Below, one piece after another: positions 9,571 through 60,654 of a stretch of DNA of 63,395 nucleotides. Source of the stretch: a bacterium (GTDB lineage Bacteria > Patescibacteriota > Minisyncoccia > Phycocordibacterales > UBA5272). How positions within the stretch are numbered: the first letter of the stretch is position 1; every line of letters starts with the position of its first letter. Location: positions 1-63,395 of the forward strand of contig JAYTSG010000033.1 of NCBI GenBank assembly GCA_043745785.1, read 5' to 3'. Position numbers and translations under genes: made by a program. The notes beneath the pieces were generated by a model. The model saw only the letters and a list, made by a program, of their open reading frames with translations. It searched no databases and was not told the DNA's origin.

Positions 9571-9585
9571 AGAACAGAAGGTTAA

Positions 9586-9878: not shown

Positions 9879-9951
9879 TGGGAGATAGAGGGCTCGAACC
9901 TCTGACCTTCTCGGTGTAAACGAGTTGCTCTACCAACTGAGCTAATCTCCC
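9879..9951 (-). tRNA. tRNA-Val (anticodon UAC)
   Basis: Acceptor gggagat/atctccc; anticodon loop UUUACAC; T-arm agagg-ttcgagc-cctct. Confidence 0.85.
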
Positions 9952-10008
9952 TGGTAAGTGAAAGACTATCATAAATTCAAATTTTTTGCTAGTATAGAGA
10001 CCTAACTT

Positions 10009-10083
10009 GCCCTTGTAGTTAAATGGATATAACTGCGGACTTCTAAGCCGTTATTCTAGGTTCGATTCCTAGCGAGGGCACCA
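10009..10083 (+). tRNA. tRNA-Arg (anticodon UCU), CCA encoded
   Basis: Acceptor gcccttg/cgagggc; anticodon loop CUUCUAA; 3' ACCA present. Confidence 0.8.
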
Positions 10084-10162
10084 AAAGCACAGAAAAAGAT
10101 AAAGAGCCTGAAACTATCCCTTTTATCATCTTTTCTCATGCCATTTGATAAACATCATTTTT

Positions 10163-10891: not shown

Positions 10892-10903
10892 AATACTAGA
10901 ACT

Positions 10904-11326
10904 ATGAAAACGATTGCACTTGATGAAAAAGAAATCATTGCCCGCAAGGCTCTTTCTTTTGCTGCTGGAGACACAGTAAAAGTTTGGAATAAAATCAAAG
11001 AATCTGATGGTAAAATCAGACTTCAGGCATTTGAAGGTATGGTTCTCGCTCGAAAGCATGGCACTGAAACAGGTGCTACTTTTACGATGAGAAAAGTAAC
11101 TTCAGGTGTTGGTGTCGAAAGAGTGTACCCACTTTTTAGTAATTCAATTGATAAAGTTGAAATCATTCGTAAGAATACTACTCGCCGGAGTAAACTTTAC
11201 TACGTTCGTGATAAAGCTCTTCGTGATGTTCGTCGTAAACTTAAAGCAAATACTAAAGTTGTGAAGAAAGGTTCAGCAACAACAACTGAAGTTTCAGAAA
11301 CAGAAGAAATTACAGTTACAGAATAA
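10904..11326 (+). CDS. rplS: 50S ribosomal protein L19 with C-terminal extension
   Basis: GDTVKVWNKIKE...RLQAFEGMVLARKH...ERVYPLFSNSIDKVEI typical of L19. Confidence 0.85.
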   Translation: MKTIALDEKEIIARKALSFAAGDTVKVWNKIKESDGKIRLQAFEGMVLARKHGTETGATFTMRKVTSGVGVERVYPLFSNSIDKVEIIRKNTTRRSKLYYVRDKALRDVRRKLKANTKVVKKGSATTTEVSETEEITVTE

Positions 11327-11330
11327 AGAA

Positions 11331-11360
11331 AAGAAGACCTCAAGGAGGTCTTCTTTTCTT
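11331..11360 (+). terminator. Intrinsic terminator after rplS
   Basis: gaagacctc/gaggtcttc stem followed by a T run. Confidence 0.65.
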
Positions 11361-11472
11361 TTTCTCTTTTTTGTGTTAGTATTCCCATACCTCATGAGTA
11401 TTTTGTAAGGAAAAAATTTCTCAAAAAAATTCTATTCCGTGTGTTAAATAAAAAAGTGAGAAAATAATGTTT

Positions 11473-11556
11473 GCCCAGGTGGCGGAATTGGTAGACGCAC
11501 TACCTTGAGGTGGTAGCGGGGTTATCCTCGTGGAGGTTCAAGTCCTCTCTTGGGCA
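11473..11556 (+). tRNA. tRNA-Leu (anticodon GAG)
   Basis: Acceptor gcccagg/cttgggc; anticodon loop UUGAGGU; long variable arm. Confidence 0.85.
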
Positions 11557-11815
11557 CAGAGAAATAAAAAACAAAGCTTTGTAGCTTTGTTTTTTATTTC
11601 TCTGTGCCCAAGAAGCAAGTGACCAATGTCACTTGCGTGAGGACTTGAAAGAATTGCCGGTCTACAGCTTTGAGTACTTCGAAAAGTTGTCGGCAATTCC
11701 CGGGGTCGCGAAACAATCTTTTTCTCAAGTCGAAGACGAAAAGAAAAAGATATGTTTGGTGACCAAGTCCTCTCTGTGCCCAAGAAGAAAGCAAACCGGT
11801 TTGCTTTCGTTACCA
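11557..11815 (+). repeat. tRNA-matched structured module, Leu-type copy
   Basis: 30-bp perfect palindrome 11548-11577/11584-11613; antisense acceptor 11603-11613; H1 11614-11638; antisense T-arm 11639-11649; cccggggtcgcg 11699-11710; sense T-arm 11764-11774; second antisense acceptor plus H1' 11775-11810. Confidence 0.7.
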
Positions 11816-12044
11816 AGTCTGATATCCTGATGATATTATTCTAACTATTACACATGAAAATAGTATACAAAGATAATGAATTTTAATCCTTGAAGAAAAG
11901 CCAAATGCAATCTTAATTATTGCTGGGGTATCGCTCGGCTTATTACTAGGTGTCACTAAACATCTTTACTCTGAAGACCCTGAGCTTTTTATTAGCACTC
12001 ATACGCATGTTGGTTTAGGGGCCATTGCTGTATTTCTGTTTGCA

Positions 12045-12407
12045 ATGACTTATTATCTATATTTTTCTACTAGAGTTATTATAAAAAAAGCAGATCTTTC
12101 AGTAGTCATTAAAACAAGTAAACGATTTCAGAAGGAAGAAGATCATTTCTCGCTTAACTTGTGTAAAAGCGTTAGTCTAGAGAAATACTATCAAGAGTTT
12201 AGTAAACCACATGGAACAAATACACTGCCTTGGTATGGGTTAGTATTGTACTTTGAAAAAGAAAAAGAAAAAGTTCTTAACCCTTTTGGAGCAATGTCTA
12301 GTACTTTTCTTACTTCTAAGAAACAAAAAGAAGAGCTTCTTAAAATTTCTGATGAAATTGCAACGTTTATTGGTGTCCCTGCGATAGACAATACTAGGGA
12401 GTCTTAA
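12045..12407 (+). CDS. Hypothetical protein; frame is open upstream to 11880 without an ATG
   Basis: The same frame encodes two TM-like segments (IILIIAGVSLGLLLGV, GLGAIAVFLFAMTYYLYF) before the first ATG. Confidence 0.35.
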   Translation: MTYYLYFSTRVIIKKADLSVVIKTSKRFQKEEDHFSLNLCKSVSLEKYYQEFSKPHGTNTLPWYGLVLYFEKEKEKVLNPFGAMSSTFLTSKKQKEELLKISDEIATFIGVPAIDNTRES

Positions 12408-12568
12408 ACTATGATGTAATAATTTGTTTTTTGCTATAAAAATCGTTACTTTGCAACGCTTACGCAAAAGATTTAGCCCCTCGCAGGGTATAATTCTCTT
12501 GGGTTTAAACACTGCCGGCTGAAACAAAATTTTCTTTCTCTTGTAAATAAAATCTATATACTAAAGTA

Positions 12569-13014
12569 ATGAACTTATATTTTAGAAAAGCTGTAGTAGA
12601 TGATATTCCTTTGCTTCTTTCTCTTGAAGAAAGTGCTCGGGATTTAAAAGTATACTCAGGTACTTATAGCAGAGATGAATGGACAGAAGAGCTTAAGATC
12701 GGAGTCGTCTATATTATAGAAAGAAATGGAGTGCCTGTTGGTGATGTCATGTATGAAAAGAAGAGTGAGTGCTATTTTTATATCGATAAAATTTGGTACT
12801 ACCTGAGCATCAGGGTCAAGGCATTGCGAAAATAGCAATGGAGTATATTCTCTCAGAAATAGGAGAGGCAAAAAGAATAGATCTTGTCACTCATCCTGAA
12901 AATAATAAAGCCGTCAATCTATACGCATCGCTGGGCTTTGCTATCGAGTCGAGAAAAGAAGATTACTTTGGTGATGGAGAGCCAAGGATTGTTATGGTTA
13001 AAATTAGAGACTGA
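12569..13014 (+). pseudogene. GNAT acetyltransferase split by a frameshift
   Basis: ORF 12569..12835 and ORF 12793..13014 (LPEHQGQGIAK acetyl-CoA motif) are two halves of one GNAT fold; shift lies in the aaaattt run near 12790. Confidence 0.6.
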
Positions 13015-13450
13015 TAATCTCCTTGAAATAAAACCTATCCAAGAACAGTAATAGCTTATATACTTGAAAAAATAAAGCAATCATACCTATGTCAAAAGAA
13101 CAAAAAATATTATTACTTTTTATTTTTCTTCTAGAGCTTAATAATATCGAAAGGTAGACACCGAAGCTAGAGCCCATAACATTAATATTATGTATGTCTA
13201 TATTAGGAATAGATAGTAAAGAATCGTAAAGGGTAAGAATATATTGAAGAAAATTTTCTCGTGTTAGTAAATTGATAGTAGTCTTATCCTTTCCGTGCCC
13301 AGGCAAGTCAAAGTTTACACAACAATAACCTTTCTGAGTAAGTGTCTTTACATAAAGAAGATTACTTTCACTACTACCATTCTAACCATGTATAAAAATA
13401 ATGACAGGATGCTTTTCAATCAGGTGAGCAGGGTATGCAACCATAAGCAT
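13004..13450 (-). pseudogene. Alpha/beta-hydrolase remnant with in-frame TAG and C-terminal truncation
   Basis: Minus-strand reading MLMVAYPAHLIEKHPVIIFIHG*NGSS...LPGHGKD...GSSFG; TAG at 13382-13384 sits at a position usually aromatic (HGW/HGF); no Asp/His part of the triad. Confidence 0.55.
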
Positions 13451-13602
13451 ATCAAAATATATTCTATTACTTTTTAACTCAAGTGTTTGCAGGTTAAAAT
13501 ATAGGTATTCTCTTTCTCAAGTCATTCTAAAATACTCATTTTATCCCCACCCATGAAATAAAAAGGTTTCCTCTTTCCTAGTAACATTATATACTTATAC
13601 AC

Positions 13603-14142
13603 ATGACAAAAGAACAAAAAATATTAATGCTTCTTGTGTTACTCGTGGCCGGAGGAGGAGTCTCTCTCTATCTATTGACGCAAAATGCAGTTACACCTCT
13701 AGAGACTCAGGAGATGATAAATAAAACCGGAAATACAACCACAAAAGGAAGCGCTACGACTACGCAAGTGCCAGTCACCACTATTCCAGCTAAAGATCCC
13801 TCTACCGGAGCTTTCATGCCTCCAATGGGTATACCGAAAAATATTAATGCTCCTCACTTGAGTAATGTCACCTATGTTATTCCTGAAAAAGGAACAGAGA
13901 CAATCCATGTCACTCTTTTTGTAAAAGAGGGACTAATACAAGACGTACGTTTCACTTTCGATCCTGCCTCAACAAGACAGTCAGGAGAGTATCTCAGTGC
14001 TTTTAGCAAAGCCCTTGCAGTAGCGAATCTTAAAGGTCAAAAAGTTAATGAGGTGTCTCTTTCTCGTGTTGGCGGAGCAAGTCTCACTACTGACGCTTTC
14101 ATGAAAGCTGTTACTGAGATAAATGTCAAAATTGGCAGCTAA
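13603..14142 (+). CDS. Membrane-anchored FMN-binding-domain protein (likely ApbE substrate)
   Basis: N-terminal TM; C-terminal SRVGGASLTTDAF resembles the FMN_bind flavinylation motif (sGAT/S); adjacent to apbE. Confidence 0.5.
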   Translation: MTKEQKILMLLVLLVAGGGVSLYLLTQNAVTPLETQEMINKTGNTTTKGSATTTQVPVTTIPAKDPSTGAFMPPMGIPKNINAPHLSNVTYVIPEKGTETIHVTLFVKEGLIQDVRFTFDPASTRQSGEYLSAFSKALAVANLKGQKVNEVSLSRVGGASLTTDAFMKAVTEINVKIGS

Positions 14143-15028
14143 TTTTTTCCTTATTGATTCTTTCCCAGCGCTCGGCACTGTATTTTGGGTCGAGTGTTTT
14201 GACCTCTCTCTTAAAGAGAATTTAGTAAGAAGGTTATTGATTGCTGAAGATTTATATACATATATATCTACTTTTGAAGAAAAATTTTCTAGATTTAAAA
14301 AGTCTTCTTTGGTGACAAGATTAAATAAAGACAAAAAAGTTTTATATGATGAAGACCTTTTTGTAATGCTTTCCTTTGGGAAGGATCTTTCAGAAAAAAC
14401 AAATACTCTTTTTTCTTTGTATTTGGGAAATGAACTCATTGAAAAAGGTTATGGAGAAAAAGATTTTCAAACTGTATCATTTGAGAAAATTTCCTCAAAC
14501 TTTACGAGAAAAGGAAAAGAGATATTCTTAGAAGGGGGTGGTGCTGTTGATCTCGGAGGTGTTGGAAAAGGTTATCTCATAGATTTACTTGCGAATCGTT
14601 TGCAAAAAAAATGGGGAGTACTTTTTTTTCTCATTAACGGTGGGGGAGACATGTATGGCACAACAGATAATGGTGAACCACTACAAATACTTCTAGAGCA
14701 TCCGTTAGAAAAAGAAATATACCTTGGAAAAATTGAAATAAAATATCAAGGTTTTGCAGCATCTTCCTCTTTTAAACGAATGTGGAATAAAGAAGGAAAA
14801 GAGGTGAACCACTTTGTCACTCAAGGCGATGAAGTGTGGGGGGCTTCCTTTGTTGTTGCAAAAAATGCTCTCATTGCTGACGCCCTCGCTACTTGTTTAC
14901 TTCTTTATTTACCATCAAAAAAAGAGCAAGAGAAACTTTGTCAAACTTACTCTGCTTCGTATATGCTTATAGATGATGAAGGGGTATTTCTTGATCCGAC
15001 TTTCCCTCCTCTGCAGACGCTCGCATAA
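14123..15028 (+). CDS. apbE: FAD:protein FMN transferase (ApbE family)
   Basis: GGGAVDLGGVGKGYLIDLLA motif typical of ApbE. Confidence 0.7.
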   Translation: MSKLAANFFLIDSFPALGTVFWVECFDLSLKENLVRRLLIAEDLYTYISTFEEKFSRFKKSSLVTRLNKDKKVLYDEDLFVMLSFGKDLSEKTNTLFSLYLGNELIEKGYGEKDFQTVSFEKISSNFTRKGKEIFLEGGGAVDLGGVGKGYLIDLLANRLQKKWGVLFFLINGGGDMYGTTDNGEPLQILLEHPLEKEIYLGKIEIKYQGFAASSSFKRMWNKEGKEVNHFVTQGDEVWGASFVVAKNALIADALATCLLLYLPSKKEQEKLCQTYSASYMLIDDEGVFLDPTFPPLQTLA

Positions 15029-15191
15029 TCTGTTACAATCATAGTATGAGCACTCCACACGTTTACTCCTCCTTATTTTATTTACTACGTTTGCTTAGTG
15101 TGTATTGTCATCATAAAAAAAACTACTTTTTTCTAAAATTAAGAAAGAGAATATTTATTATGAAGAGCTTGAGTTTTTATATGGAAAAACA

Positions 15192-16562
15192 ATGAAAAAA
15201 ATATTGACTACTTTCAAAAAGTATATACGCGCTCTAGTTCCAGAACAACTGCTCTTGATATATCATGGGGTTACTGCATATACAGGGGCTGTTCTGTATG
15301 GTTTCCCCTCAAAAGGAATGGTTATTATTGGTATTACGGGCACTAAAGGTAAAACTACTTCAGCAAATGTAATGTATTCAGTTTTGTCTACTACGTATAA
15401 GACAGGTCTTATTACTACAGCAAATATAAAGATAGGAGATAAGGAAAGATTAAATCCTTGGCATATGACCATGCCAGGAAGATTTGTCATACAAAAGTTA
15501 TTAAGAGAAATGAAAGATGTTGGGGTTACTCATGTCATCATTGAGACAACTTCGGAAGGTCTTAAACAAAAGAGGCATGTAGGTATTTACTATGATGTCG
15601 CTGTTTTTACTAATCTCTCTCCTGAACATTTGCCGTCTCATAATAATAATTATGAGACGTATCGCAAAGCAAAAGAAGTACTCTTTGCTTCAATCGTGAA
15701 GAAAAAGAAAAAAATACCTCATACCCTATCCCCAACAATTATCGTCAATGGTGATGACATCGAAGCTATTCATTTTAAAAAACATAAAGCAGACAAATAT
15801 TTTTCTTTTGGTACTGGTGATACTGTGGAAGTGAAAGGGGTAGATGTTGTTCAAAAAGGTAAACTCCTTACTTTTTCAACACTTGGTAAAGTTTATAAGG
15901 TAAATGCTTTTGGTTCTTATTTTATTTATAACGTGCTCCCCGCTCTTATTGTTGCGAAAGAGTGTGCAGTTAATGATGAAGATATTTCTTTTGCTTTAGC
16001 TCATTTGCCTGTGATACCAGGAAGAATGGAAGTGATAGACGAGGGGCAGAATTTCCTAGCTCTCGTTGATTATGCACATGAAAAACTCAGTATGACGCGT
16101 CTCGCTGAGACAGTGCACGAACTAAAAAAAGAAAACCCTTTATCAAGATGGATAGTTCTTCTTGGTGCTGAAGGGGGAGGGAGAGATAAAAGAAAGCGTG
16201 CGGACATGGGGAAGGTGGTGGGACGTATGGCAGATATTGTTATTATTTCCAACACTGACCCTTATGAGGAAGATGAAATGGCTATAGCGCGTGAGATAGC
16301 GAGTTATGTAGAACAGTATGACAAGAAAGAGGGCTCTGGCTATCGGATTGTATTAGATAGAAAAGAAGGAATAAGGGTTGCTCTCGCATATGCGAAGAAA
16401 GGTGATATCGTCACCATCACAGGAAATGGGTCTCAGCAGTTTTTTCATAGGAAAGGAGAAAAAGTTCCTCATGACGATAGAAACGTCATGAGAGAAATAC
16501 TGAGAGAGATGAGAGACACTAAGGGAGAGCTTTTTGCCCTAAAGTATTCCGTCAGTAACTAA
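15192..16562 (+). CDS. murE: Mur ligase, MurE-type (UDP-MurNAc-tripeptide synthetase)
   Basis: P-loop GITGTKGKTT, DYAHEK and GGGRDKRKR motifs. Confidence 0.7.
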   Translation: MKKILTTFKKYIRALVPEQLLLIYHGVTAYTGAVLYGFPSKGMVIIGITGTKGKTTSANVMYSVLSTTYKTGLITTANIKIGDKERLNPWHMTMPGRFVIQKLLREMKDVGVTHVIIETTSEGLKQKRHVGIYYDVAVFTNLSPEHLPSHNNNYETYRKAKEVLFASIVKKKKKIPHTLSPTIIVNGDDIEAIHFKKHKADKYFSFGTGDTVEVKGVDVVQKGKLLTFSTLGKVYKVNAFGSYFIYNVLPALIVAKECAVNDEDISFALAHLPVIPGRMEVIDEGQNFLALVDYAHEKLSMTRLAETVHELKKENPLSRWIVLLGAEGGGRDKRKRADMGKVVGRMADIVIISNTDPYEEDEMAIAREIASYVEQYDKKEGSGYRIVLDRKEGIRVALAYAKKGDIVTITGNGSQQFFHRKGEKVPHDDRNVMREILREMRDTKGELFALKYSVSN

Positions 16563-16699
16563 AAGATTAAACGCTTGTATTCTCGTGCAAAAGTAAGGAT
16601 TGACTTCAATGGACTTTGACGAGAAATATGGTAGAATAAAGGTCTTCCGTTAAGTCATAAACCTCCAGTAATAAAAGAAGTTGTCAAGGAATGAATATG

Positions 16700-16771
16700 G
16701 TGGCTATAGTGTAACGGTTAGCACTAGGGTTTGTGGAACCCTCAGTTCGGGTTCAAATCCCGATAGCCACA
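16700..16771 (+). tRNA. tRNA-His (anticodon GUG)
   Basis: Acceptor gtggcta/tagccac (a G precedes at 16699); anticodon loop UUGUGGA; T-arm tcggg-ttcaaat-cccga. Confidence 0.85.
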
Positions 16772-16962
16772 CAAAAGTTCAAATCCCGATAAGTATACTT
16801 ATCGGGATTTGAACTTTTGTGTGGCTAAGCAAGCAAACTGCTTTGCTTGTGTGCGGGATTTGAAAGTCCGGAACATGTTTCGCTAGCAAGCGAAACGGTG
16901 AGGAGCGGGAGGCGAGAACTTTTTGTGGCGACAAAAAGTTACTTGCGGAAAAATCCCGATAG
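16772..16962 (+). repeat. tRNA-matched structured module, His-type copy M1
   Basis: 64-nt perfect palindrome 16764-16827; antisense acceptor 16820-16827; H1 16828-16852; antisense T-arm 16853-16864; H2 and H3 hairpins; sense repeat 16951-16962. Confidence 0.7.
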
Positions 16963-35106: not shown

Positions 35107-35688
35107 ATGAGCATCAAGAGTGATAAGTGGATACGCCGCATGGCGCAGCAGTCGGGCATGATCGAACCGTTTGAGCCCGGTCAAGTACGCCAGTCGGTCG
35201 ACGGCCAGAAGATCGTCAGCTACGGCACCAGCAGCTACGGCTACGATGTGCGTTGTGGCCCTGAGTTCAAAGTTTTTACGAACATTTTCAGTACTGTGGT
35301 CGATCCGAAGAACTTCGATGAAAAGAGCTTCGTTGACTGGAATGCGGATGATCACGAAGGGGTTTGTGTCATTCCTCCAAACAGCTTTGCACTCGCGCGC
35401 ACGCTGGAGTACTTCCGCATACCGCGCAACGTGCTGACCATCTGCTTGGGTAAGTCCACCTACGCCCGCTGCGGCATCATCGTCAACGTCACGCCTTTCG
35501 AGCCTGAGTGGGAAGGTTACGTGACGCTAGAGTTCAGTAATACGACGCCGCTGCCGGCCAAGATTTACGCTGGTGAAGGCTGCGCGCAGGTGCTGTTCTT
35601 CGAGAGCGACGAGGTCTGCGAGACGAGTTACAAGGACCGAGGGGGCAAGTATCAAGGACAGCGTGGTGTGACGCTACCTAAGGCGTGA
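35107..35688 (+). CDS. dcd: dCTP deaminase
   Basis: [20 protein letters not shown]...[20 protein letters not shown] pattern of Dcd; about 60% GC in hand-counted lines. Confidence 0.85.
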
Positions 35689-35790
35689 TGGGTGAGGTGC
35701 TGTGAGTACCAAAGAAAGGTGAGTCTACGGACCCACCTTTTCTTCTTTCTTACTTTCAGAGTTGACACCTAAAGAAATGTTTTCATAACC

Positions 35791-35822
35791 CAAAAAAAGA
35801 AAGAGGCACCTTTGTGGTGCCC
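35791..35822 (-). terminator. Intrinsic terminator for thyX
   Basis: ggcacc/ggtgcc stem followed on the minus strand by a T run. Confidence 0.6.
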
Positions 35823-35841
35823 CGAGCCAAATGGCTGCTGT

Positions 35842-36666
35842 TCAAACTTTCCAGTATTCAGGAACGAGTGCCCCGTTCACCTCTTTGAAGTCTCCGAACA
35901 GCTCAGGGACGTTTGCAAGCATCTCCTTTCCGACCTTCTTGTAGACGTGAACGATTTCTTCTTCTGCTCCTTCGTTCGTACGGAGTGCAATGATGTGCCG
36001 AAGGGCACGAACATTTAGACTCCAGACACCTCCTGTTGCGATTCCCATGCCGATGCCACGGCGAAAAGCGGAGGTCAGTACTTTCTTGCCATGGAATGTG
36101 CTCGAAGGGTCGAGCTCTTCCTTCCATGTTCCTGCGAAGAATGCCATCATTTCTTCTTGGCTCGTGAACTGGGCAGTCAAGCGTTCTCGGCTAAGCTGTT
36201 TCTTACGAGCAAGTGTCTCTGAGTCGCTAGTTTCTTCTCGAAAGCATTCGGGCATCCAAAATTCAATGTTCTCGTAGCGTACGTATCGCATACTCCGTTC
36301 GGAGATAGCGACGCCTGCGCGATGACGATTGTTTTCTCCCGTGAAGACTCGTGAACAGCCGTTGATGCCGAAAGTGAAGACGGCGTGCTCAAGAACAGAG
36401 CCATGTCGTTGCTTCATGACATTGTCAAGATAGTTAACCATGTCTTTTCTCACCTTGGTGACGTTAGGGTTGAGCCCGGGTTGAAACGACATATAGCACT
36501 GCTTTGCCGCAAGAGCGACGAGGAGTGCGGGGTCAGAGACAGCTTCTTGTTCGGGTATCTCAAACTCGTCTGCCCCGAGATCGTCAAGCCAAAGGCGTAC
36601 AGCTTTGCGGTCAACAACAGTTTTTGCAATTTGGAAGACACGAATTTCGTTAAAGGATGATGCCAT
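35842..36666 (-). CDS. thyX: Flavin-dependent thymidylate synthase ThyX
   Basis: ThyX signature RHRAGVAISERSMRY (RHR-x8-S-x-R-Y). Confidence 0.85.
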   Translation of the reverse strand: MASSFNEIRVFQIAKTVVDRKAVRLWLDDLGADEFEIPEQEAVSDPALLVALAAKQCYMSFQPGLNPNVTKVRKDMVNYLDNVMKQRHGSVLEHAVFTFGINGCSRVFTGENNRHRAGVAISERSMRYVRYENIEFWMPECFREETSDSETLARKKQLSRERLTAQFTSQEEMMAFFAGTWKEELDPSSTFHGKKVLTSAFRRGIGMGIATGGVWSLNVRALRHIIALRTNEGAEEEIVHVYKKVGKEMLANVPELFGDFKEVNGALVPEYWKV

Positions 36667-36834
36667 GATGGCCTCCGTATGGGTTAGGGATTGCGTGTGC
36701 AGAGATCTCTTTTCAGGGACTCTTAAAAAACTCTACTACTTTAAGCTCTATTTTGCAATTTTGTTTATTCTTTTAGCAAGAGTATAATTGCTGGCAAGGT
36801 AGCATTAGGCTACTTTGTTCATTAACTAAACCTT

Positions 36835-37458
36835 GTGAGGACGCAAATGATACACGCAAAATATATCGTTATTGACGGTATTGACGGTGGTGGAAAAACT
36901 AGCCTTTTCTCTTGGCTGAAAACAGTTTTTCCAACAGGAAAGTTTGAATATACGCGAGAGCCCGGAGGAACACCTCTCTCTGAAAAGATTCGCCCACTTC
37001 TTTTGCAGGAACCCATGTCTCCGTACTCTGAAATGTGTCTCTTCATCGCTGCTCGCGAAGACACTCGAAAACAAGTCGTTGCTCCAGCACTTGCGCGTGG
37101 TGTTCATGTCATTTCTGATCGTTCTGATTCTTCTACATTTGCCTATCAGCTTCGTGGAAGAAGACATGAAGACCTGCAAGATCTTTTTTGGAAGATGAGT
37201 GAAAGGATCCACCCTTCGCCGTCACTCTATATCTTTCTTGACCTTGATCCAAAGGTTGCTGCTGGGCGTATGGAAGGGCGAAGAGCGGATAGGTTCGATA
37301 CCGAGAGTATTGAATTCTTTAGAAGAGTGAGGCGAGGTTTTCAGGATTTTGCTGCTCATGTTCAAAGTCCTTGCCAAGTCGTCAGTGCTGAGCATTCACC
37401 AGAAATGGTTGCAGAAGAAGTTCGTGTGCTCATACAAGATCACTTGAGGGGGGAGTGA
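36835..37458 (+). CDS. tmk: Thymidylate kinase
   Basis: P-loop IVIDGIDGGGKT and DR(S/Y) motif; start may be 36847. Confidence 0.85.
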   Translation: MRTQMIHAKYIVIDGIDGGGKTSLFSWLKTVFPTGKFEYTREPGGTPLSEKIRPLLLQEPMSPYSEMCLFIAAREDTRKQVVAPALARGVHVISDRSDSSTFAYQLRGRRHEDLQDLFWKMSERIHPSPSLYIFLDLDPKVAAGRMEGRRADRFDTESIEFFRRVRRGFQDFAAHVQSPCQVVSAEHSPEMVAEEVRVLIQDHLRGE

Positions 37459-37533
37459 TTTCAGACGCAATACAAACAAGAGGGTGGTCAGAAGTGACCG
37501 CCCCTTGTCTTTTTTCTATAATACGATATTATC

Positions 37534-37959
37534 ATGCGAATGAGGCTCTTGATTAAAAAATTAGAACAAGACGCGAAGTTGCCTGAAAGGGCTCATAAAG
37601 AAGATGCAGGAGCTGATATTTTTTCTTTCGGTGAGCAAACTATTCTGCCGGGCGAAACCAAAAAGCTGCGCACTGGGATTTCCTTCGCTTTTCCTCCAGG
37701 TTATGTTGCTCTCATCTGGGACAAATCCTCTGTTGGAGCGCTTGGTATTAAAACTCTTGGAGGTGTAGTAGATGCTGGGTACCGAGGAGAAGTGCAGGTG
37801 GTTATGATAAATCTTTCAAAAAATAAAATCATCTTCTCGCATGGACAAAAAATAGCACAGATACTCATACAAAAAGTAGAACTTCCAGAAATAGTAGAGG
37901 TAGAAAGTCTCGATGCTACTTTGCGTGGAGAAGGTGGTTTTGGAAGTACTGGGAAATAA
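37534..37959 (+). CDS. dut: dUTP diphosphatase (trimeric dUTPase)
   Basis: AGADIFS, GVVDAGYRGE and GFGSTG motifs. Confidence 0.85.
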   Translation: MRMRLLIKKLEQDAKLPERAHKEDAGADIFSFGEQTILPGETKKLRTGISFAFPPGYVALIWDKSSVGALGIKTLGGVVDAGYRGEVQVVMINLSKNKIIFSHGQKIAQILIQKVELPEIVEVESLDATLRGEGGFGSTGK

Positions 37960-37973: not shown

Positions 37974-39821
37974 ATGAATCCAGAGGAAGAGATCAGAAAC
38001 GCACTTATAAAAGTTAGTCAAAACTGTTTTAACAATTGGTCACCTATGTTTAATTTGGAGAAAAAAGATGATCTTAGACATGGAGATTACTCTACAAATT
38101 ACGCGTTCGGTTTCTTTGCGGATTTTGCTCGACTTACTGACACTCATGTTGGAGAAATGACAATTATTTTCCCAAATGATCTTCCAAAGCTAAAAAAATC
38201 AGCTAATCCTAAAGAGTTGGCTGATCAGTTGGTTCTTGTATTGAACAGTGATAATAAATTGAAAGAGATTGTTTACCATATCGAGTCTGCTGGTACAGGA
38301 TTTATCAACTTTTTTATAAAACCTGAGGTAATAAGGGAAGCTGCGTACACTGTCGGGAAAATAAAGACGAAATTTTCTGGTAAAAAAATTCTTGTTGAGC
38401 ACTCCTCTCCAAATCTCTTTAAGCCATTTCATATTGGCCACCTGATGAATAATATAGTAGGGGAGTTTTTAACAAGAGGAATGAGTTTCGCAAATAATGG
38501 TAATGTAACAGTACTTTGTTTCCCTTCAGACATTTCTTTTGGTATTGCAAAAGCTCTATATGTTTTGATGAAAGAAGAAGACATAAATACATCTTTATTT
38601 AATGAGTTTAAAACAATTGGCAGCGATGAAGATTTGTCAGAGGTTGTTTCCTATCTCGGCATCTGCTATGTAAAAGGCACAGCGCTGATACACCTCTCAC
38701 CAGAAGATAATTTGTTAGTACCTGAGGTTCGAGGGATAGCAAAAAAACTCTATGACGCGATTGAAGGAAGGGGGGATAAAAAATCCAGAGAGTATGAGTT
38801 ATGGCAAAGAGCCCATGAGCTCAATACTCAATACTTTCAAACAGTTATTGAAAGTATTGGCTCTCAGATGGGAAAGCCTATTTTTGAAAGTGAAGTCTCT
38901 TTGCTGGGAAAAGATATTGTTACAAAGAATATTCCTAACGTATTTACCGCAAGCGAAGGAGCTGTTGTTTATATTCCAAATGAAGAAAGAAAAGATATAA
39001 ATATCAGTGTATTCATCAACAGTGAAGGGCATCCTACCTATGAAGCGAAAGACCTCGGTCTTATTTATAAAAAGTTTTTTGATTATAAAGAGACAGATGT
39101 TTCACTATTTGTGACTGATGCAGAACAAACACAACACTTTAAGGTAGTGCTTGATGCTGCTTCAAAGTTGGGTGGAGACTGGGAGCAAAGAGTAAAAAAG
39201 AGCATTCACGTTCCTCATGGTAGGATGCTCTTTAAGGGGCAGAAAATGTCAAGTCGTCTGGGCGGCGTACCGCTTGCACTCGACGTGATTGCTGTAGTCG
39301 AAGAAGAAGTAAAAGAGCGCGCAGGGGACAAAATTGCGAATCTTTCGCAAGAAGAGAAAGGTAAACTCGCTCGAGAGATAGCACTCTCTGCGCTTCGTGT
39401 CGCGGTCCTTCGTTCCAAGCCAGGAATCAATATTAACTTTGATCCAGAAACATCACTTTCTTTTGAAGGGGATTCAGGGCCATACCTTTTGTATACGCAT
39501 GCTCGCTGTAGCTCACTTCTTGAAAAAGGCAAAGATATTGTACCAGAGTTTGATAATGCAGTTTCTGTGAGGGCTCTCGAGCGTACTCTTCTTCATTTCA
39601 ACAAGACTCTCAGAGAAAGTATTGAAGATATTGCTCCACAAAAACTAGTCACGTATCTTTTCCTTGTTGCTCAAGAATTTAATAGTTTTTATGGGCAAGA
39701 GCAGATTCTTTCGGAGAACGTCAAAAAAACGGCGCATAATCTCGCTATCGTTTCTTGGACAAAGGAAGTTCTGAAGCAAGGGTTGTATGTACTTGGCATT
39801 ACTGCTCCAGAGCGAATGTGA
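37974..39821 (+). CDS. argS: Arginyl-tRNA synthetase
   Basis: HIGH-type motif PFHIGHLMN; C-terminal anticodon-binding (DALR-like) region; ends in ...ERM as in ArgRS. Confidence 0.85.
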   Translation: MNPEEEIRNALIKVSQNCFNNWSPMFNLEKKDDLRHGDYSTNYAFGFFADFARLTDTHVGEMTIIFPNDLPKLKKSANPKELADQLVLVLNSDNKLKEIVYHIESAGTGFINFFIKPEVIREAAYTVGKIKTKFSGKKILVEHSSPNLFKPFHIGHLMNNIVGEFLTRGMSFANNGNVTVLCFPSDISFGIAKALYVLMKEEDINTSLFNEFKTIGSDEDLSEVVSYLGICYVKGTALIHLSPEDNLLVPEVRGIAKKLYDAIEGRGDKKSREYELWQRAHELNTQYFQTVIESIGSQMGKPIFESEVSLLGKDIVTKNIPNVFTASEGAVVYIPNEERKDINISVFINSEGHPTYEAKDLGLIYKKFFDYKETDVSLFVTDAEQTQHFKVVLDAASKLGGDWEQRVKKSIHVPHGRMLFKGQKMSSRLGGVPLALDVIAVVEEEVKERAGDKIANLSQEEKGKLAREIALSALRVAVLRSKPGININFDPETSLSFEGDSGPYLLYTHARCSSLLEKGKDIVPEFDNAVSVRALERTLLHFNKTLRESIEDIAPQKLVTYLFLVAQEFNSFYGQEQILSENVKKTAHNLAIVSWTKEVLKQGLYVLGITAPERM

Positions 39822-39929: not shown

Positions 39930-40167
39930 AGTAAGAAAGTTTTTTCTTGCATCTCCCTTTATTTCTGTTATGATGGAACTATACAGCAATGAAGGGAATA
40001 ATCACCCCCGAGCGAGGGAAGAACATAGCATGTACGCTATAACTAGAACCCATAAATAAGTTTTGCTTTCTTGTGAGAGCAAATAAAACAAGGTGGTACC
40101 ACGATAAAAATCGTCCTTGGAAATAAGTTCATGTAAGTGAATCTATTTCTGTGGGCGATTTTTGTTT
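39930..40167 (+). promoter_or_regulatory. T-box riboswitch leader, candidate Ile specifier
   Basis: T-box sequence aggtggtaccacg 40091-40103; terminator arms aaaaatcgtcc 40106-40116 / gggcgattttt 40153-40163 plus T run; candidate specifier AUC followed by A at 40001-40004; 5' boundary approximate. Confidence 0.7.
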
Positions 40168-40350: not shown

Positions 40351-43300
40351 ATGGAAGACAAAAAAATAACAATATCAAAGACAATCAATGAAAAAGAACT
40401 TGAAACACTTGCCTTTTGGAATGAAGCAAAGATTTTCGAAAAGTCAGTAGAAACCCCAGCAGGGAGTGCTCCAGTCGGAAACTTTTCTTTTTACGACGGA
40501 CCTCCTTTTGCGACTGGACTTCCTCATCATGGGCATATACTTGCCGGAACCATCAAAGACACCATACCTCGCTATCAGACGATGCAAGGCAAACGTGTGC
40601 GCCGTATGTGGGGCTGGGATTGTCACGGTCTGCCTATAGAAAATCTTATAGAAAAGAAATTAAACTTATCATCTAAAAAAGCTATTGAAGAATATGGTAT
40701 TGATAAGTTTAATCATGAGGCGATGAACTCTGTCCTCGCCTACGATACAGAATGGAAAAAGATAGTGCCGCGTCTCGGTAGATGGGTAGATATGGAACAT
40801 CCGTATAAAACAATGGACGCCACCTATACAGAAAGTGTGTGGTGGAGTTTTTCTGAATTACATAAAAAAGGTTTTGTCTACGAAGGAAATAAAATGATGC
40901 ATATTTGTCCGAGATGTGAGACACCACTAGCACAAAGTGAAGTCGGTCTTGAATACCATGATGTGACGGATATTTCAGTGACGGCTAAGTTTGAGCTCAT
41001 TGATCCTACTACACCGGATAATCATCCTTCTTCTTCTGAAACCCTGAAAGAGTTCAACTCAGAGAATTCTACCAAAAAGACTTATATTCTGGCATGGACG
41101 ACGACACCGTGGACTTTGCCAGGTAATACTGCCCTTGCTGTGAATAAAGGTATCACTTATGTGAAAGTTAAAGCTGTAAAGAAATCAGTATCTGTTAATA
41201 GTATTTCGGATAGAGATGTCTCAGGAGGGGATGATATCGTATGTGTATATTTTATTTTAGCTAAATCAAAATTTCAAGAATATAAAGCTTTTTCGGAAAA
41301 AGATTTTATGATTTTCATAGTCGAAGAAGAATTTTCTGGAGAAAAACTGATTGGAAAATCATATAAACCAGTTTTTCCTTATTTTGTAGATAAAGAAATG
41401 GATAATAGAGAAAATCTTTTCAAAATATGGCATGCAGACTTTATTACTGATGATACTGGTACAGGTATCGCGCATGAAGCGCCAGCATTCGGAGCAGAAG
41501 ATATGGATCTTGCAAAGGAAAATAATATCCCCGTTATAAAGCATGTCAAAATGGATGGCACGTTTACTGTAGAGGTGACTGACTTTGCTGGCATGAAAGT
41601 GAAAGTTAAAGACGATACACAGTCAGCAGACATAGAAATCATCAAGTATCTCGCGTATCACGGGTCACTTTTTGAAAAACATAAAATAATACACTCGTAT
41701 CCATTATGCTGGAGATGTAAAACTCCGCTCCTTAATTATGCGACTAGTTCATGGTTCGTCGATGTTCCAAGTTTTAGAGATAAACTTGTTTCAGAGAATC
41801 AAAAGATTGGTTGGACCCCAGAGCATATGCGCGATGGACGATTTGGTAAATGGTTAGAAGGCGCTCGTGAATGGGCTGTTTCGAGGCTTCGCTACTGGGG
41901 AGCCCCACTGCCTGTTTGGAGAAGTGAGAGTGGAAAAATAAAAGTTATTTCATCACTGAAAGAACTTGCCGAACTTTCTATAACCAAACCAAAGAACAGT
42001 TATTTTGCGATGAGACATGGGCAGTCACTCTATAATACAGAGCAAAAGCTGGACTCCCTTGGTGTGGAAGAAAACGTCCTGACAGAGGTGGGAAGAGAAA
42101 AAATAAAATCTCAAAGAGAAGTATTTAAGAAAGTAGGTATTAATATCATTCTCGTTTCTCCTCTCCCTCGCACGAGAGAGACAGCTCATATAGTAAGTGA
42201 AGGCAGTGATGTAAGTATCATTATTGAGGAGAAGCTTCGTGAGTTTGCCTTTGGAGAATTCGAAGGTAAAAGTTCAGACGAGTTTCATAATCATAAAACT
42301 CTACATGAACATTTAGACGAAAAAGTAGAAAAAGGAGAGTCATTTCGAGATCTTGCTAAAAGATTTATGCAGGTAGTAGCTGAGTGTGAAGAAAAATATG
42401 AAGGTAAAAAAATACTTTTTGTAACACACGGTTCCAATGCATATATGGGTCGAGCTGAAGCTCATTTGTGGACTGATGAAGAAATCTTACAGGGTAACAA
42501 TGAGCTCACTGTCCATAATGGTGAATGTATACCTATAGAAATTAAAATGGTTCCGCGCGATGCCACAGGGGCCGTTAACTTACATCGCCCTTATATAGAC
42601 GATGTTGTTTTAGATATAGATGGTGAAGAGTATAGACGTATTCCTGACGTGTTTGACTGCTGGTATGAGTCTGGCTCTATGCCGTATGCTTCGCTCCATT
42701 ATCCTTTTGAAAATAAAAAGGTCTTTGAAAATAATTTTCCAGCTGACTTTATTGCAGAAGGGCTCGACCAAACTCGCGGATGGTTTTATTCACTGATGAA
42801 CCTTGGAGTTGGTGTTTTTGATAAGTCTCCGTATAAACAAGTAGTAGTCAACGGTACTATTTTGACTGGTGATGGTGAAAAAATGAGTAAAAGTCTGAGT
42901 AATTTTACCGACCCTATGCTTCTTGTGGAAAAGTATGGAGCAGATGCACTTCGTTATTTCTTGCTTTCTTCCCCTGTAGTGAAGGGAGAAAGTATGGAGT
43001 TTCATGATAAAGGAGTGGAAGATGTTTATAAGAAAGTTATTGGTCGCTTAGAAAATGTGGTGTCACTGTATATGATGAATAAAGATGAAGCAGTAACAGC
43101 TAAAGCAGACAGTACGAATGTTCTTGATATCTGGATAGTAAGCCTACTTCATGCCATGCAGAGAAATGTGACTATAGCCTATGATACATATAAACTTGAC
43201 GAAGCAACGAGACCTCTTGAAAGTTTTATCGACAGTCTTTCTGTCTGGTATGTCAGACGCTCAAGAGATAGGTTCAAAGGGGTTCTTGGTGAGCTGGAAA

Positions 43301-43938
43301 AACGTGAGGCTCTCGCTACTCTTAAGTATGTACTGCTCGAGCTCGCAAAAATGATGGCACCGGTTATGCCATTCCTCGCGGAGCGCATATATCTTGAAAT
43401 GGGTGGAGGAAGTGAGAGCGTCCATTTGGAGAAATGGTCGGCTATAAAACCTCTTGTAGATACCGAAGCGGAGGGTGTCAAAAATATGTCTCTCACCAGA
43501 GACTTTGTGTCAGTGCTTTTAATGCAAAGAACCAAAGCAGGTATACCTGTACGTCAACCGCTAGCTAGTGCAACTATCAATGATAGCTTACCTGAAGTGT
43601 ATCTTGAAATTATTAAAGAAGAAGTAAATATCAAAAAAATCCTTATTGATACAAGAGAAAAAGAAGAGGTGTCGATTGAGACGACTATGACAAAGGAGCT
43701 TATCCGCGAAGGAGATATCAGAAATATCATGAGATCTCTTCAAGATACTCGTAAAGAAAAAGGGATGACTCAGGGTGACATGGCGCAAGGAGAAATAGCT
43801 CTCACTCTTACGGAAAGTGAGAGAAATGAAATCATGAAAGTATGTAATCTTTCTACACTTGCTTTTGTTTCCGAAATAGAAAATGCGAATAAGTCTCAAG
43901 TATCTTTTGGTAAGATTTTATTTTCTGTAAAGCTGTAA
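40351..43938 (+). CDS. ileS: Isoleucyl-tRNA synthetase carrying an internal histidine-phosphatase-like domain
   Basis: HIGH (PHHGH) and KMSKS motifs and editing domain; extra segment at about aa 548-735 with RHG, SPLPRTRETA and THG motifs. Confidence 0.85.
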   Translation: MEDKKITISKTINEKELETLAFWNEAKIFEKSVETPAGSAPVGNFSFYDGPPFATGLPHHGHILAGTIKDTIPRYQTMQGKRVRRMWGWDCHGLPIENLIEKKLNLSSKKAIEEYGIDKFNHEAMNSVLAYDTEWKKIVPRLGRWVDMEHPYKTMDATYTESVWWSFSELHKKGFVYEGNKMMHICPRCETPLAQSEVGLEYHDVTDISVTAKFELIDPTTPDNHPSSSETLKEFNSENSTKKTYILAWTTTPWTLPGNTALAVNKGITYVKVKAVKKSVSVNSISDRDVSGGDDIVCVYFILAKSKFQEYKAFSEKDFMIFIVEEEFSGEKLIGKSYKPVFPYFVDKEMDNRENLFKIWHADFITDDTGTGIAHEAPAFGAEDMDLAKENNIPVIKHVKMDGTFTVEVTDFAGMKVKVKDDTQSADIEIIKYLAYHGSLFEKHKIIHSYPLCWRCKTPLLNYATSSWFVDVPSFRDKLVSENQKIGWTPEHMRDGRFGKWLEGAREWAVSRLRYWGAPLPVWRSESGKIKVISSLKELAELSITKPKNSYFAMRHGQSLYNTEQKLDSLGVEENVLTEVGREKIKSQREVFKKVGINIILVSPLPRTRETAHIVSEGSDVSIIIEEKLREFAFGEFEGKSSDEFHNHKTLHEHLDEKVEKGESFRDLAKRFMQVVAECEEKYEGKKILFVTHGSNAYMGRAEAHLWTDEEILQGNNELTVHNGECIPIEIKMVPRDATGAVNLHRPYIDDVVLDIDGEEYRRIPDVFDCWYESGSMPYASLHYPFENKKVFENNFPADFIAEGLDQTRGWFYSLMNLGVGVFDKSPYKQVVVNGTILTGDGEKMSKSLSNFTDPMLLVEKYGADALRYFLLSSPVVKGESMEFHDKGVEDVYKKVIGRLENVVSLYMMNKDEAVTAKADSTNVLDIWIVSLLHAMQRNVTIAYDTYKLDEATRPLESFIDSLSVWYVRRSRDRFKGVLGELEKREALATLKYVLLELAKMMAPVMPFLAERIYLEMGGGSESVHLEKWSAIKPLVDTEAEGVKNMSLTRDFVSVLLMQRTKAGIPVRQPLASATINDSLPEVYLEIIKEEVNIKKILIDTREKEEVSIETTMTKELIREGDIRNIMRSLQDTRKEKGMTQGDMAQGEIALTLTESERNEIMKVCNLSTLAFVSEIENANKSQVSFGKILFSVKL

Positions 43939-43944: not shown

Positions 43945-44511
43945 TTGTTCTCTGTGGCAATAGAAAAATATACAACGGAAGCCTTTGTTCTTAGAGACTA
44001 TGAGCAAGGAGAGCATGATAAAGTCTTTAAACTCTTTACAAGAGAATTTGGCGTGCTGTACACTCTTGCTAAAAGTGTAAGAAAACTTGAAAGTAAACTA
44101 AGGTATCACCTCGATACTTCAAAGAAATTATCCGTCACGCTCGTCAAGGGTAAAGAAGTGTGGAGATTAACAGGTGTTGAAAGTTTAAGTGAAAGTAGTA
44201 ATAACACAGCACTCGCTTGTCATATAGTAGAGCGTTTTGTACGTGGTGAAGGGGCTCAGAAAAAACTTTTTGATCATGTCTCGGAGTTCTCACTCTTAGA
44301 AGACGGGTCACTTCCGAGCGATGTCGGCGTACTCACTTTGTATTATCTGCTCCTGGTCGATCTTGGTTATGCAGATGGTAGTCTAGGTGGGGCAAAAGAT
44401 ATAGAAGAGTTTTTCTCGTTCTCACTTACTGATCATTTTACTCACATACTACTACATAAAGCTGTCGTCAAAAGTCATGTACACACAGTAATGGCTGAAA
44501 TGCAGTTATAA
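43945..44511 (+). CDS. recO: DNA repair protein RecO (short form)
   Basis: N-terminal OB-fold pattern EAFVLRDYEQGEHDKVFKLFTREFG; TTG start. Confidence 0.55.
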   Translation: MFSVAIEKYTTEAFVLRDYEQGEHDKVFKLFTREFGVLYTLAKSVRKLESKLRYHLDTSKKLSVTLVKGKEVWRLTGVESLSESSNNTALACHIVERFVRGEGAQKKLFDHVSEFSLLEDGSLPSDVGVLTLYYLLLVDLGYADGSLGGAKDIEEFFSFSLTDHFTHILLHKAVVKSHVHTVMAEMQL

Positions 44512-60044: not shown

Positions 60045-60260
60045 GACATTTAGGGTCTTTCCGTCGCAAGTACTCGCGAGCTCATCTCGCTTGTTTTAGT
60101 TTTGTCTTGAACCCAACAAAACTAAAACATAGCTGCGACCGTTCGAATCCTCACAGACGTGAGCGTCTCCCAATATGATTCTCTAATCAGCGGTTCACGT
60201 CTTCCATCTCCACAGAAAATAAAAGTGCGACACCTTTCGGTGTCGCACTTTTATTTTCTG
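60045..60260 (-). repeat. tmRNA-matched module
   Basis: 31-bp perfect palindrome 60204-60234/60239-60269 includes the tmRNA 3' end; on the minus strand tgggagacgc, hairpin ctcac-gtct-gtgag, ggattcgaacgg (antisense T-arm), then atgttttagttttg...caaaactaaaac hairpin and gtacttgcgacggaaag as in M1. Confidence 0.55.
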
Positions 60261-60654
60261 TGGAGATGGGCGGATTCGAACCGCCGTGTACAAAAGGGTA
60301 AGGGTAGCATCTACGTTACGTAGTTTGCTTTTATATGTCTCGACATCCTCCTCTAAAAAACAAACCAAATGAGAAAGATGTCAAAGCACATTGTTTCGGA
60401 ATTTCTCTGTGCGTGTAGAAGTTCCTACGCTCGTAAGTATATTGCCCACACTTTCTCTTACGAGTAAAGAAAAAGGGGACACCAGGTTGGCGTATTACGC
60501 GAACGCTGGAGCAAATCCGAACGCCATATATGGTGAAGGGATAGCCTTAGCAGTTTTGTTTGCACAAAATTGTTACAACAAGCTTAACGAAATTTGTTGC
60601 CACTTCGGTGACGCACTACCTCTACCTTTTTTGTATCGATACCAGTACATCCCC
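60261..60654 (-). ncRNA. ssrA: tmRNA (SsrA)
   Basis: 5' GGGGAUG pairs with 3' CAUCUCC-A including G3:U; T-arm ggcggttcgaatccgcc; tag ORF 60563..60495 encodes ANKTAKAIPSPYMAFGFAPAFA*; lies downstream of smpB. Confidence 0.85.

Follow-up and report, generated by a model that had tools for sequence, protein, structure and literature searches.

A histidine phosphatase domain inserted in the catalytic core of a type-2 isoleucyl-tRNA synthetase of Patescibacteria: a candidate bifunctional enzyme

We analysed a stretch of 63,395 nucleotides from a Patescibacteria genome (contig JAYTSG010000033.1; "the window" below means this whole stretch). Its ileS gene (40351-43938, + strand) encodes an isoleucyl-tRNA synthetase (IleRS) of 1195 residues that is assigned to type 2 (eukaryote/archaea-like, MupA-like) by its open reading frame (ORF), its match to TIGR00392 and its likeness to the solved structure 8C8V. 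The synthetase is interrupted in connective peptide 3 (CP3) by a domain of about 184 residues (amino acids 550-733 of IleS, to which all residue numbers refer; 41998-42549, + strand) that Pfam and Protein Data Bank (PDB) searches and AlphaFold 2 (AF2) models compared by Foldseek identify as a PhoE-like member of the His_Phos_1 family. On balance, we favour the reading that a T-box-regulated housekeeping IleRS and its CP3-inserted phosphatase make up one bifunctional enzyme, and that this phosphatase is a partner of class Ia synthetases.

The reading frame of ileS is open from end to end, insert included. IleS scored 819.1 bits with the isoleucine-tRNA ligase equivalog model TIGR00392 (cut-off 621.4), and the insert divides this match in two. 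In Pfam, tRNA-synt_1 was likewise matched in two stretches flanking His_Phos_1; Anticodon_1 was also matched, and DUF5915, which is found in relatives too, gave a weak match. The His_Phos_1 (PF00300) match covers residues 553-695 with E 5e-31 (108-113 bits; gathering cut-off 21.7). A preliminary description, made by reading the DNA, had placed a histidine phosphatase with uninterrupted frame at 41992-42555 and had expected a match to His_Phos_1. This region equals residues 548-735, and all peptides quoted for it are present, among them MRHGQS (554-559), SPLPRTRETA (603-612) and VTHGSN (691-696).

The insert is flanked by SSLKELAELSITKPKN (residues 534-549) and VPRDATGAVNLHRPYIDD (residues 734-751); the sequence passes from ...KPKN into SYFAM... 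at the first junction and from ...IEIKM into VPRD... at the second. When IleS was aligned with human IARS1, the alignment broke at ...ELEELSGAK495 and restarted at 498DLHRESVD. Breaks and restarts with other solved enzymes were at 483 and 490 (T. thermophilus), 492 and 498 (yeast) and 499 and 505 (C. albicans). We conclude from these alignments that about 190 residues occupy the place of a loop of 2-6 residues, so that the flanks are contiguous in ordinary IleRS, as had been proposed.

CP3 comprises residues 459-526 in yeast ScIleRS (PMC7955072) and 473-534 in C. albicans CaIleRS; it is a peripheral subdomain whose fold and zinc content vary between species (PMC7191050). Alignment to these two enzymes with their published domain limits puts CP3 of IleS at residues ~511-770 (41881-42660, + strand), with the phosphatase interrupting it. 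The insertion point follows a helix ending ...SLKELAEL (534-542) and precedes the element NLHRPYIDD (743-751), and the Rossmann strand beta-4 (DVFDCWYESG) lies shortly 3' of the latter. By these limits, the loop replaced by the phosphatase is in the middle of CP3, inside the catalytic core and not at a terminus.

The catalytic set of the insert consists of R555-H556 (42013-42018), N562, R607, E631 and H693. These residues, judged intact in the preliminary description, were invariant in 120/120 close relatives, among which mean identity was 41% over the insert and 69% over the N-terminal core. Among 32 more distant sequences of the GTDB genomes, with insert identities down to ~25%, five of the six residues were kept in all 32 and N562 in 31. 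The hexad RHNREH was intact in 58 of 61 complete domains at the window's own site (site A), in 4/4 at site B and in 5/5 at site C (see below for the sites), and the length of the insert among relatives was held to 188-196 residues. Invariant catalytic residues in a domain that otherwise drifts (25-40% identity) argue for a conserved active site and not a scaffold. The pattern suggests a domain under purifying selection that is apparently active. Moreover, pairwise identities of insert and core were correlated (r = 0.69), which indicates vertical co-inheritance of insert and host.

In a PDB search with the insert alone, PhoE/YhfR of G. stearothermophilus (1EBB/1H2E) was matched with E 1.4e-15. 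The AF2 model of full-length IleS had a mean predicted local distance difference test score (pLDDT) of 85 and a predicted template modelling score (pTM) of 0.75. Over residues 541-740, pLDDT was 81-97 per block of ten residues, with 96 and 92 in the blocks that hold the junctions (541-550 and 731-740). Modelled alone, the domain reached a pLDDT of 93.4 and a pTM of 0.90. Foldseek ranked PhoE (1H2E) first for this model (template modelling score (TM) 0.80, root-mean-square deviation 2.5 Å), and further neighbours were GpgP, CobC, the riboflavin-pathway phosphatase HFP and phosphoserine phosphatase, the range being TM 0.73-0.80. These models predict with confidence that the insert is an independent alpha/beta lobe with short, confidently modelled junctions, which answers the question that the preliminary description had put to such modelling. 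The modelled fold is nearest to small-molecule phosphatases of ~200 residues, rather than to the phosphoglycerate mutase dPGM. The domain is acidic, with an isoelectric point (pI) of 5.4 (family median ~6.3), and therefore no obvious RNA binder; copies fused to arginyl-tRNA synthetase (ArgRS) or to TsaC, described below, have pI 9.4-9.6.

The exact IleS protein of the window is recorded on four contigs from separate sources (NCBI and Logan assemblies). Its best 120 database relatives (56-99% identical) come from many independent contigs of up to 532 kb; all 120 combine PF00133 with PF00300 and, save for a 795-residue fragment (P0033), they are 1138-1214 residues long. A GTDB scan with one genome per species found the insert at 39 loci, and later scans added 13 more insert-bearing IleRS loci. 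The survey of Patescibacteria that had been suggested thus places the same insertion in ~50 GTDB species at 32-65% identity, almost all of them Patescibacteria. The carriers belong mostly to the Parcubacteria group (Paceibacterota, Nomura-, Kaiser-, Vogel-, Zambryski-, Lipton- and Tagabacteria) and have GC contents of 0.30-0.63.

Four contigs with the identical protein, an architecture shared by 120/120 relatives and its presence in ~50 species rule out the assembly chimera that the preliminary description had considered. Its distinction of a domain insertion from a terminal fusion or an intein also holds: the domain is internal to CP3, lacks the residues of a splice junction (an N-terminal C/S; a C-terminal HN followed by C/S/T) and has no homology to Hint, and there was no intein, Hint or transposase family among the Pfam matches of IleS. 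The GC content of the insert (0.373; 0.27 at third codon positions) is close to that of the rest of ileS (0.395; 0.32) and of the window (0.38), and so there is no compositional break at the insert.

Some records with this architecture carry labels from outside Patescibacteria. One contig labelled Actinomycetota (L039, CAVYAD010000032.1; GC 0.63) has an insert-bearing IleRS that is readable only across three frames. The frameshifts at ~6342 and ~6907 are probably errors of long-read assembly, and the label is doubtful, the other carriers being Patescibacteria. The architecture also occurs on two short contigs, L023 (labelled Spirochaetales) and L036 (labelled Rhizobiaceae), which look like binning contaminants.

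The synthetase half of IleS has its signatures in place. The HIGH signature reads HHGH (H59-H60-G61-H62; 40525-40536, + strand) and the KMSKS signature comprises residues 844-848 (42880-42894, + strand); P58, H59 and G61 as well as K844, S846, K847 and S848 were invariant in 119 relatives. The editing signatures of CP1, TTTPWT (250-255) and GTGIAHEAPAFGAED (370-384), lie within 41098-41502 (+ strand), and their residues T250-T255, G370-G372, H375 and D384 were invariant in the same 119 sequences. IleS scored 631 bits with IleRS2 of P. megaterium (8C8V) and 622 bits with human IARS1, compared with 257 bits for the type-1 IleRS of S. aureus (1FFY). With Foldseek, the IleS model matched 8C8V at E 4e-73. 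By these scores, IleS is a type-2 (eukaryote-like) IleRS. It is not itself MupA or MupB, since its scores of 610-643 bits fall under the "exception" cut-offs of 1900.

Charging of tRNA-Ile by IleS is predicted, and a putative T-box with an AUC specifier upstream of the gene gives indirect support. In this leader (39980-40121, + strand; Rfam RF00230), Stem I is ultrashort and the specifier, in the region 40000-40008, is AUC(A), for isoleucine. Its core, GGUGGUACCACG, is at 40092-40103 within the 530-nt ileS leader, and the GA motif is present. Stem I is nearly absent, with 3 nt in place of 72 consensus positions. The putative T-box surfaced under an Rfam E-value threshold only (E 5e-9) and not at the gathering threshold (45.9 bits compared with a gathering score of 93), and standard annotation therefore misses it. 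In 13 related loci of Patescibacteria, its core motif is kept directly before ileS. RNA folding predicts an intrinsic terminator (40103-40167, + strand), a hairpin with U-run that overlaps the 3' half of the antiterminator. The fold has -31.3 kcal/mol (z = -7.6), and 0/200 shuffled sequences were equally stable.

The phosphatase is found at other sites and in other hosts too, which goes beyond the preliminary description. We searched 1.84 billion cluster representatives with the insert using HMMER and obtained 8437 matches at E <= 1e-3, of which 497 had E <= 1e-10; the best 150 of the 8437 were mapped to their hosts by hidden Markov models derived from the families, by Pfam and by NCBIfam. A word-indexed homolog search with the insert alone recovered only a standalone protein (P0001) and missed the window protein itself. 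Among the best 150, ~65 domains are located in IleRS at site A. Site A2 is in the second hairpin of CP3, after DLHK..VD and before ..KRI.EVLDCWFESG. Site B lies between SGSMPYA..H.PF and FPADFIAEGLDQTRGWF. Site C is at the junction of the SC-fold and the anticodon-binding domain, where the insert separates the SC-fold or first helix from that domain's LD.WI helix. The hosts of sites A2, B and C are bona fide IleRS, with 816-857 bits for TIGR00392.

Sites were combined as A+A2, A+B, A+C and B+C in proteins of 1380-1470 residues, and these multi-site enzymes (P0143, P0161, P0231, P0125, P0129, P0227, P0181 and P0139) keep the catalytic residues in all copies. What appeared to be tandem copies at site A were really two insertions in separate CP3 loops, A and A2. 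Domains at sites B and C do not have the site-A copy of their own protein as nearest relative and so are not recent internal duplications. Two hosts are valyl-tRNA synthetases (ValRS), both with sequences that end at a contig end: P0226 has one copy at about the position equivalent to CP3, and P0127 has four, one of them before an ISRQR-like segment. An ArgRS (P0176) and a TsaC/Sua5 protein (P0249) each have a C-terminal copy. Every long host examined among the best 150 was thus an IleRS, ValRS, ArgRS or TsaC; the remaining matches were standalone proteins of 175-220 residues or two-domain proteins of ~400 residues.

TsaC/Sua5 of Patescibacteria, a protein of the t6A pathway, has a C-terminal histidine phosphatase in 4-5 clusters (P0249 and P0272-P0274 among the fusion matches). 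The phosphatase fused to TsaC is 49% identical to the site-A insert of one IleRS (P0144). The commonest fusion partner of TsaC is an Ogt-like domain (PF01035), and TruB, 2H/cyclic phosphodiesterase, NUDIX, GNAT and methylpurine glycosylase domains also occur.

The surroundings of ileS connect the phosphatase with synthetase genes. In the window, argS (615 residues; 37974-39821, + strand; Pfam Arg_tRNA_synt_N, tRNA-synt_1d and DALR_1) is the upstream neighbour of ileS, and a recO-like gene (43945-44511, + strand; Pfam RecO_N) is the downstream neighbour; both assignments agree with synteny. The order argS, ileS, recO and a gene for a DUF11 protein recurs in relatives. In four other loci (L043, L045, L047 and L065), a separate phosphatase gene stands between argS and ileS, the latter without insert and encoding 958-969 residues, and in one of these (L065, 3379-9401) argS ends 6 nt before the phosphatase gene. 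This last locus also has an ORF of 327 codons (5555-6535), without a Pfam match, between the phosphatase gene and ileS. In a further locus (L044), the phosphatase is fused to argS, the product being 88% identical to P0176, and in the window and two others (L046 and L050) argS is followed by an ileS with the phosphatase inside. A tblastn search had hinted at ArgRS-phosphatase fusions in L043, L045 and L047. ORF mapping resolved these into separate adjacent genes, so that the true fusions are L044 and P0176. These three states of the locus (separate gene, fused to argS, inside ileS) are the strongest evidence for a synthetase partner over a random passenger.

We built a neighbour-joining (NJ) tree of the hosts from IleRS sequences with the inserts masked (902 columns, 100 bootstraps); at ~50% identity, NJ is weak. 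All Patescibacteria IleRS formed one clade (100%). Within it, a clade of 33 members (99%) holds the window protein and consists solely of insert-bearing forms, among which the forms with B+C and with A+A2 or A+C are nested, for example (P0169 A, (P0161, P0143 B+C)) at 99%. This nesting indicates that the forms with extra sites are derived from site-A ancestors. A second clade (71%) contains 20 insert-bearing forms, 13 insert-less forms and 2 genomes with the standalone gene, in supported mixed subclades. A single origin of site A was not recovered: monophyly of insert-bearing IleRS occurred in 0/100 NJ bootstraps, NJ being weak here. One Patescibacteria contig (L082, 1808-7635) has tandem IleRS-like ORFs of 783 and 1059 residues. 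Each of them matches all three IleRS models (N, C1 and C2), and the pair may have arisen by duplication or may include a split or degenerate copy.

In the bifunctional enzyme that we propose, H556 would attack the terminal phosphate of a substrate held by R555, R607, N562 and H693 and would form a phospho-histidine, as in other branch-1 phosphatases. E631 would protonate the leaving group, and water would then free the phosphate from the phospho-histidine. The domain may have originated from a standalone phosphatase gene between argS and ileS that was joined repeatedly to class Ia synthetases, giving within the clade joins to IleRS at four sites, to ValRS and to the C-terminus of ArgRS. Its hosts and synteny suggest that the phosphatase works alongside tRNA charging, and fusion would secure equal amounts and co-location of phosphatase and synthetase. 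The place of the insertion, a surface loop of CP3, fits the proposal, since CP3 is peripheral and variable in structure and serves human IARS1 as a docking surface for protein. Candidate substrates are a small phosphorylated molecule or a by-product of adenylation (a nucleotide such as AMP, possibly pyrophosphate). The fold neighbours and the acidic surface favour the small phosphorylated molecule. IleRS, ValRS, ArgRS and TsaC share the use of ATP, the release of AMP and pyrophosphate and a link to tRNA, and nucleotides, pyrophosphate and tRNA ends are therefore the foremost candidates.

Several points weigh against this proposal. Fusions are promiscuous in these genomes, as TsaC demonstrates, and fusion alone is therefore weak evidence for a pathway; with TsaC joined to so many unrelated domains, its fusion to the phosphatase lends the idea of a shared pathway weak support. 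Portnoy- and Uhrbacteria, Kazan and others, as well as all other phyla sampled, have insert-less type-2 IleRS, and no phosphatase gene was found within 4.5 kb of the insert-less IleRS in those genomes. The idea that a standalone phosphatase accompanies every insert-less IleRS of the clade proved false, many Patescibacteria having neither. The partnership would therefore be lineage-specific and dispensable. The mixed clade of the NJ tree points to an insert that was gained or lost more than once; a passenger with loose coupling would fit this as well. Branch-1 histidine phosphatases are not known as pyrophosphatases, and we found nothing usable in the literature on the pyrophosphatase content of bacteria of the candidate phyla radiation.

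A more specific version of the proposal, to which we give clearly less weight, is that the phosphatase is coupled to the chemistry of aminoacyl-adenylates: it would clear a product or side-product common to IleRS, ValRS, ArgRS and TsaC (for example pyrophosphate, AMP or a different nucleotide), or would process the tRNA end. If so, a large branch of Patescibacteria would have class Ia synthetases with built-in product clearing or substrate conditioning, and selection for physical proximity would explain the repeated insertions in ValRS and at four or more sites of IleRS. Bifunctional aminoacyl-tRNA synthetases of this kind would not have been recognised before.

The leading alternative, which we rate clearly below our proposal, is that the domain is an ordinary metabolic phosphatase, for example one with broad activity on sugar or metabolite phosphates, that was captured by highly expressed essential genes of streamlined genomes, gained in expression and stability by this and is uncoupled from charging. 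The nearest folds are indeed generalist or metabolic small-molecule phosphatases, and an acidic domain with pI 5.4 is no obvious RNA binder. Moreover, many related IleRS lack the insert, which was seemingly gained or lost repeatedly, and unrelated fusions are common in Patescibacteria (TsaC and its partners). Such a passenger, however, would hardly be expected in a non-random set of hosts, and among the long hosts examined these were IleRS, ValRS, ArgRS and TsaC. Nor does it account readily for the internal insertions, which are much harder to achieve than a terminal fusion; they occupy four sites in IleRS and two or more in ValRS, with as many as four copies. The standalone gene, too, sits between argS and ileS in four genomes.

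We consider it improbable that the phosphatase of the window acts on a macromolecule, either a 3', 2' or 5' phosphate of tRNA (such as that left after nuclease damage) or a phosphoprotein, delivered by the tRNA-binding surface of the synthetase. Every host binds tRNA or makes an intermediate of tRNA modification, and the copies fused to ArgRS and TsaC are basic (pI 9.4-9.6), but the insert of IleRS is acidic. The TsaC reaction itself needs no tRNA, and we know of no RNA-end phosphatase in the histidine phosphatase superfamily. The superfamily does include protein phosphatases such as the phosphohistidine phosphatase SixA, to which the match was weak (TIGR00249, 22.8 bits; cut-off 74.5), and identity as SixA was rejected. 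The best structural matches, however, are enzymes for small molecules, and their cap has the size of that in PhoE. In favour of delivery by the synthetase, the pocket of the tRNA CCA end in yeast IleRS is lined by the linker between CP2 and CP3 (PMC7955072), which shortly precedes the insertion.

It is quite unlikely that the insert is a catalytically silent module, a structural or docking element of CP3 that, for example, replaces the zinc ribbon of T. thermophilus or recruits a partner. CP3 of human IARS1 is a docking surface for LARS1 (PMC13439101), and IleS of the window lacks, in the alignment, the cysteines with which CP3 of the T. thermophilus enzyme binds zinc. A silent module, however, would not be expected to keep six catalytic residues invariant while the rest of the domain drifts.

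We regard as very unlikely that the domain is the cell's own dPGM or alpha-ribazole phosphatase (CobC), moonlighting inside IleRS. The matches that point this way are weak, and all were far under the curated cut-offs: 72-78 bits compared with 225 for dPGM_arch (NF038349), 22.4 compared with 81.7 for pgm_1 (TIGR01258), 76-80 compared with 162.9 for ribazole_cobC (TIGR03162) and 67-71 compared with 261 for GpmB. The 184-residue domain is also too short, by ~50 residues, for a dPGM (~230-250 residues; TMt ~0.6). An HGN motif with its asparagine is typical of dPGM. After the second histidine, the window has HGS and relatives have HGG, HE or HN, so that this asparagine is not conserved. Finally, an artefact (assembly chimera, intein or gene-disrupting mobile element) can be set aside, as no evidence for it was found and the identical protein on four contigs, the ~50 species, the open frame, the even composition and the co-evolution of insert and host speak against it.

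Aminoacyl-tRNA synthetases are highly conserved, and the catalytic cores of bacterial enzymes rarely gain whole foreign enzymes. The core of an essential synthetase has here gained a phosphatase that is apparently active, and this in organisms otherwise noted for gene loss. The repeated joining to class Ia synthetases in one clade argues for a real, uncharacterised functional partnership. The substrate could point to a new need of translation in Patescibacteria (removal of products, salvage of nucleotides or conditioning of tRNA, for example) and would account for a combination of domains that at present goes by the mere label "class I tRNA ligase family protein". The set of insertion sites is also a natural map of permissive positions in IleRS for protein engineering. 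Furthermore, where annotation pipelines take a His_Phos match for a "phosphoglycerate mutase", they may credit these genomes with too much glycolytic capacity.

Several other features of the window were recorded. Directly upstream of argS, at 35107-37959, is a compact cluster of genes of pyrimidine deoxynucleotide metabolism, for a dCTP deaminase-like protein, ThyX (minus strand), thymidylate kinase and dUTPase. The window's ArgRS has 615 residues compared with ~500-560 in related loci; in its N-terminal domain, the Pfam model of 85 positions spans residues 5-115, which leaves ~30 extra residues. A tmRNA gene, which encodes the tag AKAIPSPYMAFGFAPAFA, and seven tRNA genes are located at 60258-60654 (- strand) and 1429-16772. 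The other genes are housekeeping genes (MetRS, FtsH, Mur ligase, P-type ATPase, beta-CASP RNase, TatD and Fpg). This ordinary content is consistent with a Patescibacteria chromosome and not with a mobile element.

Full-text searches of open-access and bioRxiv literature, aimed at this architecture, at the domain make-up of synthetases of the candidate phyla radiation and at the nomenclature of CP3, brought up no account of IleRS or ValRS with an internal histidine phosphatase, and no dedicated NCBIfam model for phosphatase-bearing IleRS was matched. The preliminary description had named no such insertion among described IleRS. As regards published work, this stands; as regards public sequences, it does not, because the architecture is common there under generic annotation. 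The proteins are labelled "isoleucyl-tRNA synthetase", "class I tRNA ligase family protein" or "hypothetical protein". The architecture is thus abundant in sequence databases and apparently uncharacterised.

Among known enzymes, the type-2 IleRS (IleRS2 of P. megaterium, 8C8U/8C8V; the cytoplasmic enzymes of yeast and human; MupA and MupB) belong to the same family as IleS of the window. They share with it the order of Rossmann fold, CP core, CP1, CP2, CP3, SC-fold, anticodon-binding domain and DUF5915. At the insertion point, solved and curated IleRS have a loop of 2-6 residues, whereas the window protein has an enzyme of 184 residues in CP3. The insert shares its fold and the set R-H-G...N...R...E...H with PhoE/YhfR (1EBB, 1H2E), GpgP (Rv2419c), CobC, HFP and PspA. 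These PhoE-type phosphatases are similar in size (~185-205 residues), but identity to the insert is only 20-28%. They are free-standing, whereas the domain of the window is embedded in a synthetase and stays under the cut-off of every curated family.

There is precedent for a bacterial IleRS with a second enzymatic domain in "ileS_w_GNAT" (NF040702), which carries an N-acetyltransferase (GNAT) instead of a histidine phosphatase and for which a curated model exists; with 296 bits (cut-off 1999), IleS of the window is not a member of this family. In the RNase H/acid phosphatase Rv2228c (NF005567), a CobC/PhoE-like phosphatase is joined to a nucleic-acid enzyme, and the insert scored 75-79 bits with this model (cut-off 326). 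Rv2228c is a terminal fusion to RNase H, whereas the phosphatase of the window is an internal insertion in a synthetase. Class Ia synthetases have acquired modules in loops of the Rossmann fold by the same route, namely CP1, CP2, CP3 and the leucine-specific domain of LeuRS. These known modules act on the synthetase's own substrates, in editing or in contacts with tRNA, whereas the module in IleS of the window is an enzyme of an unrelated superfamily.

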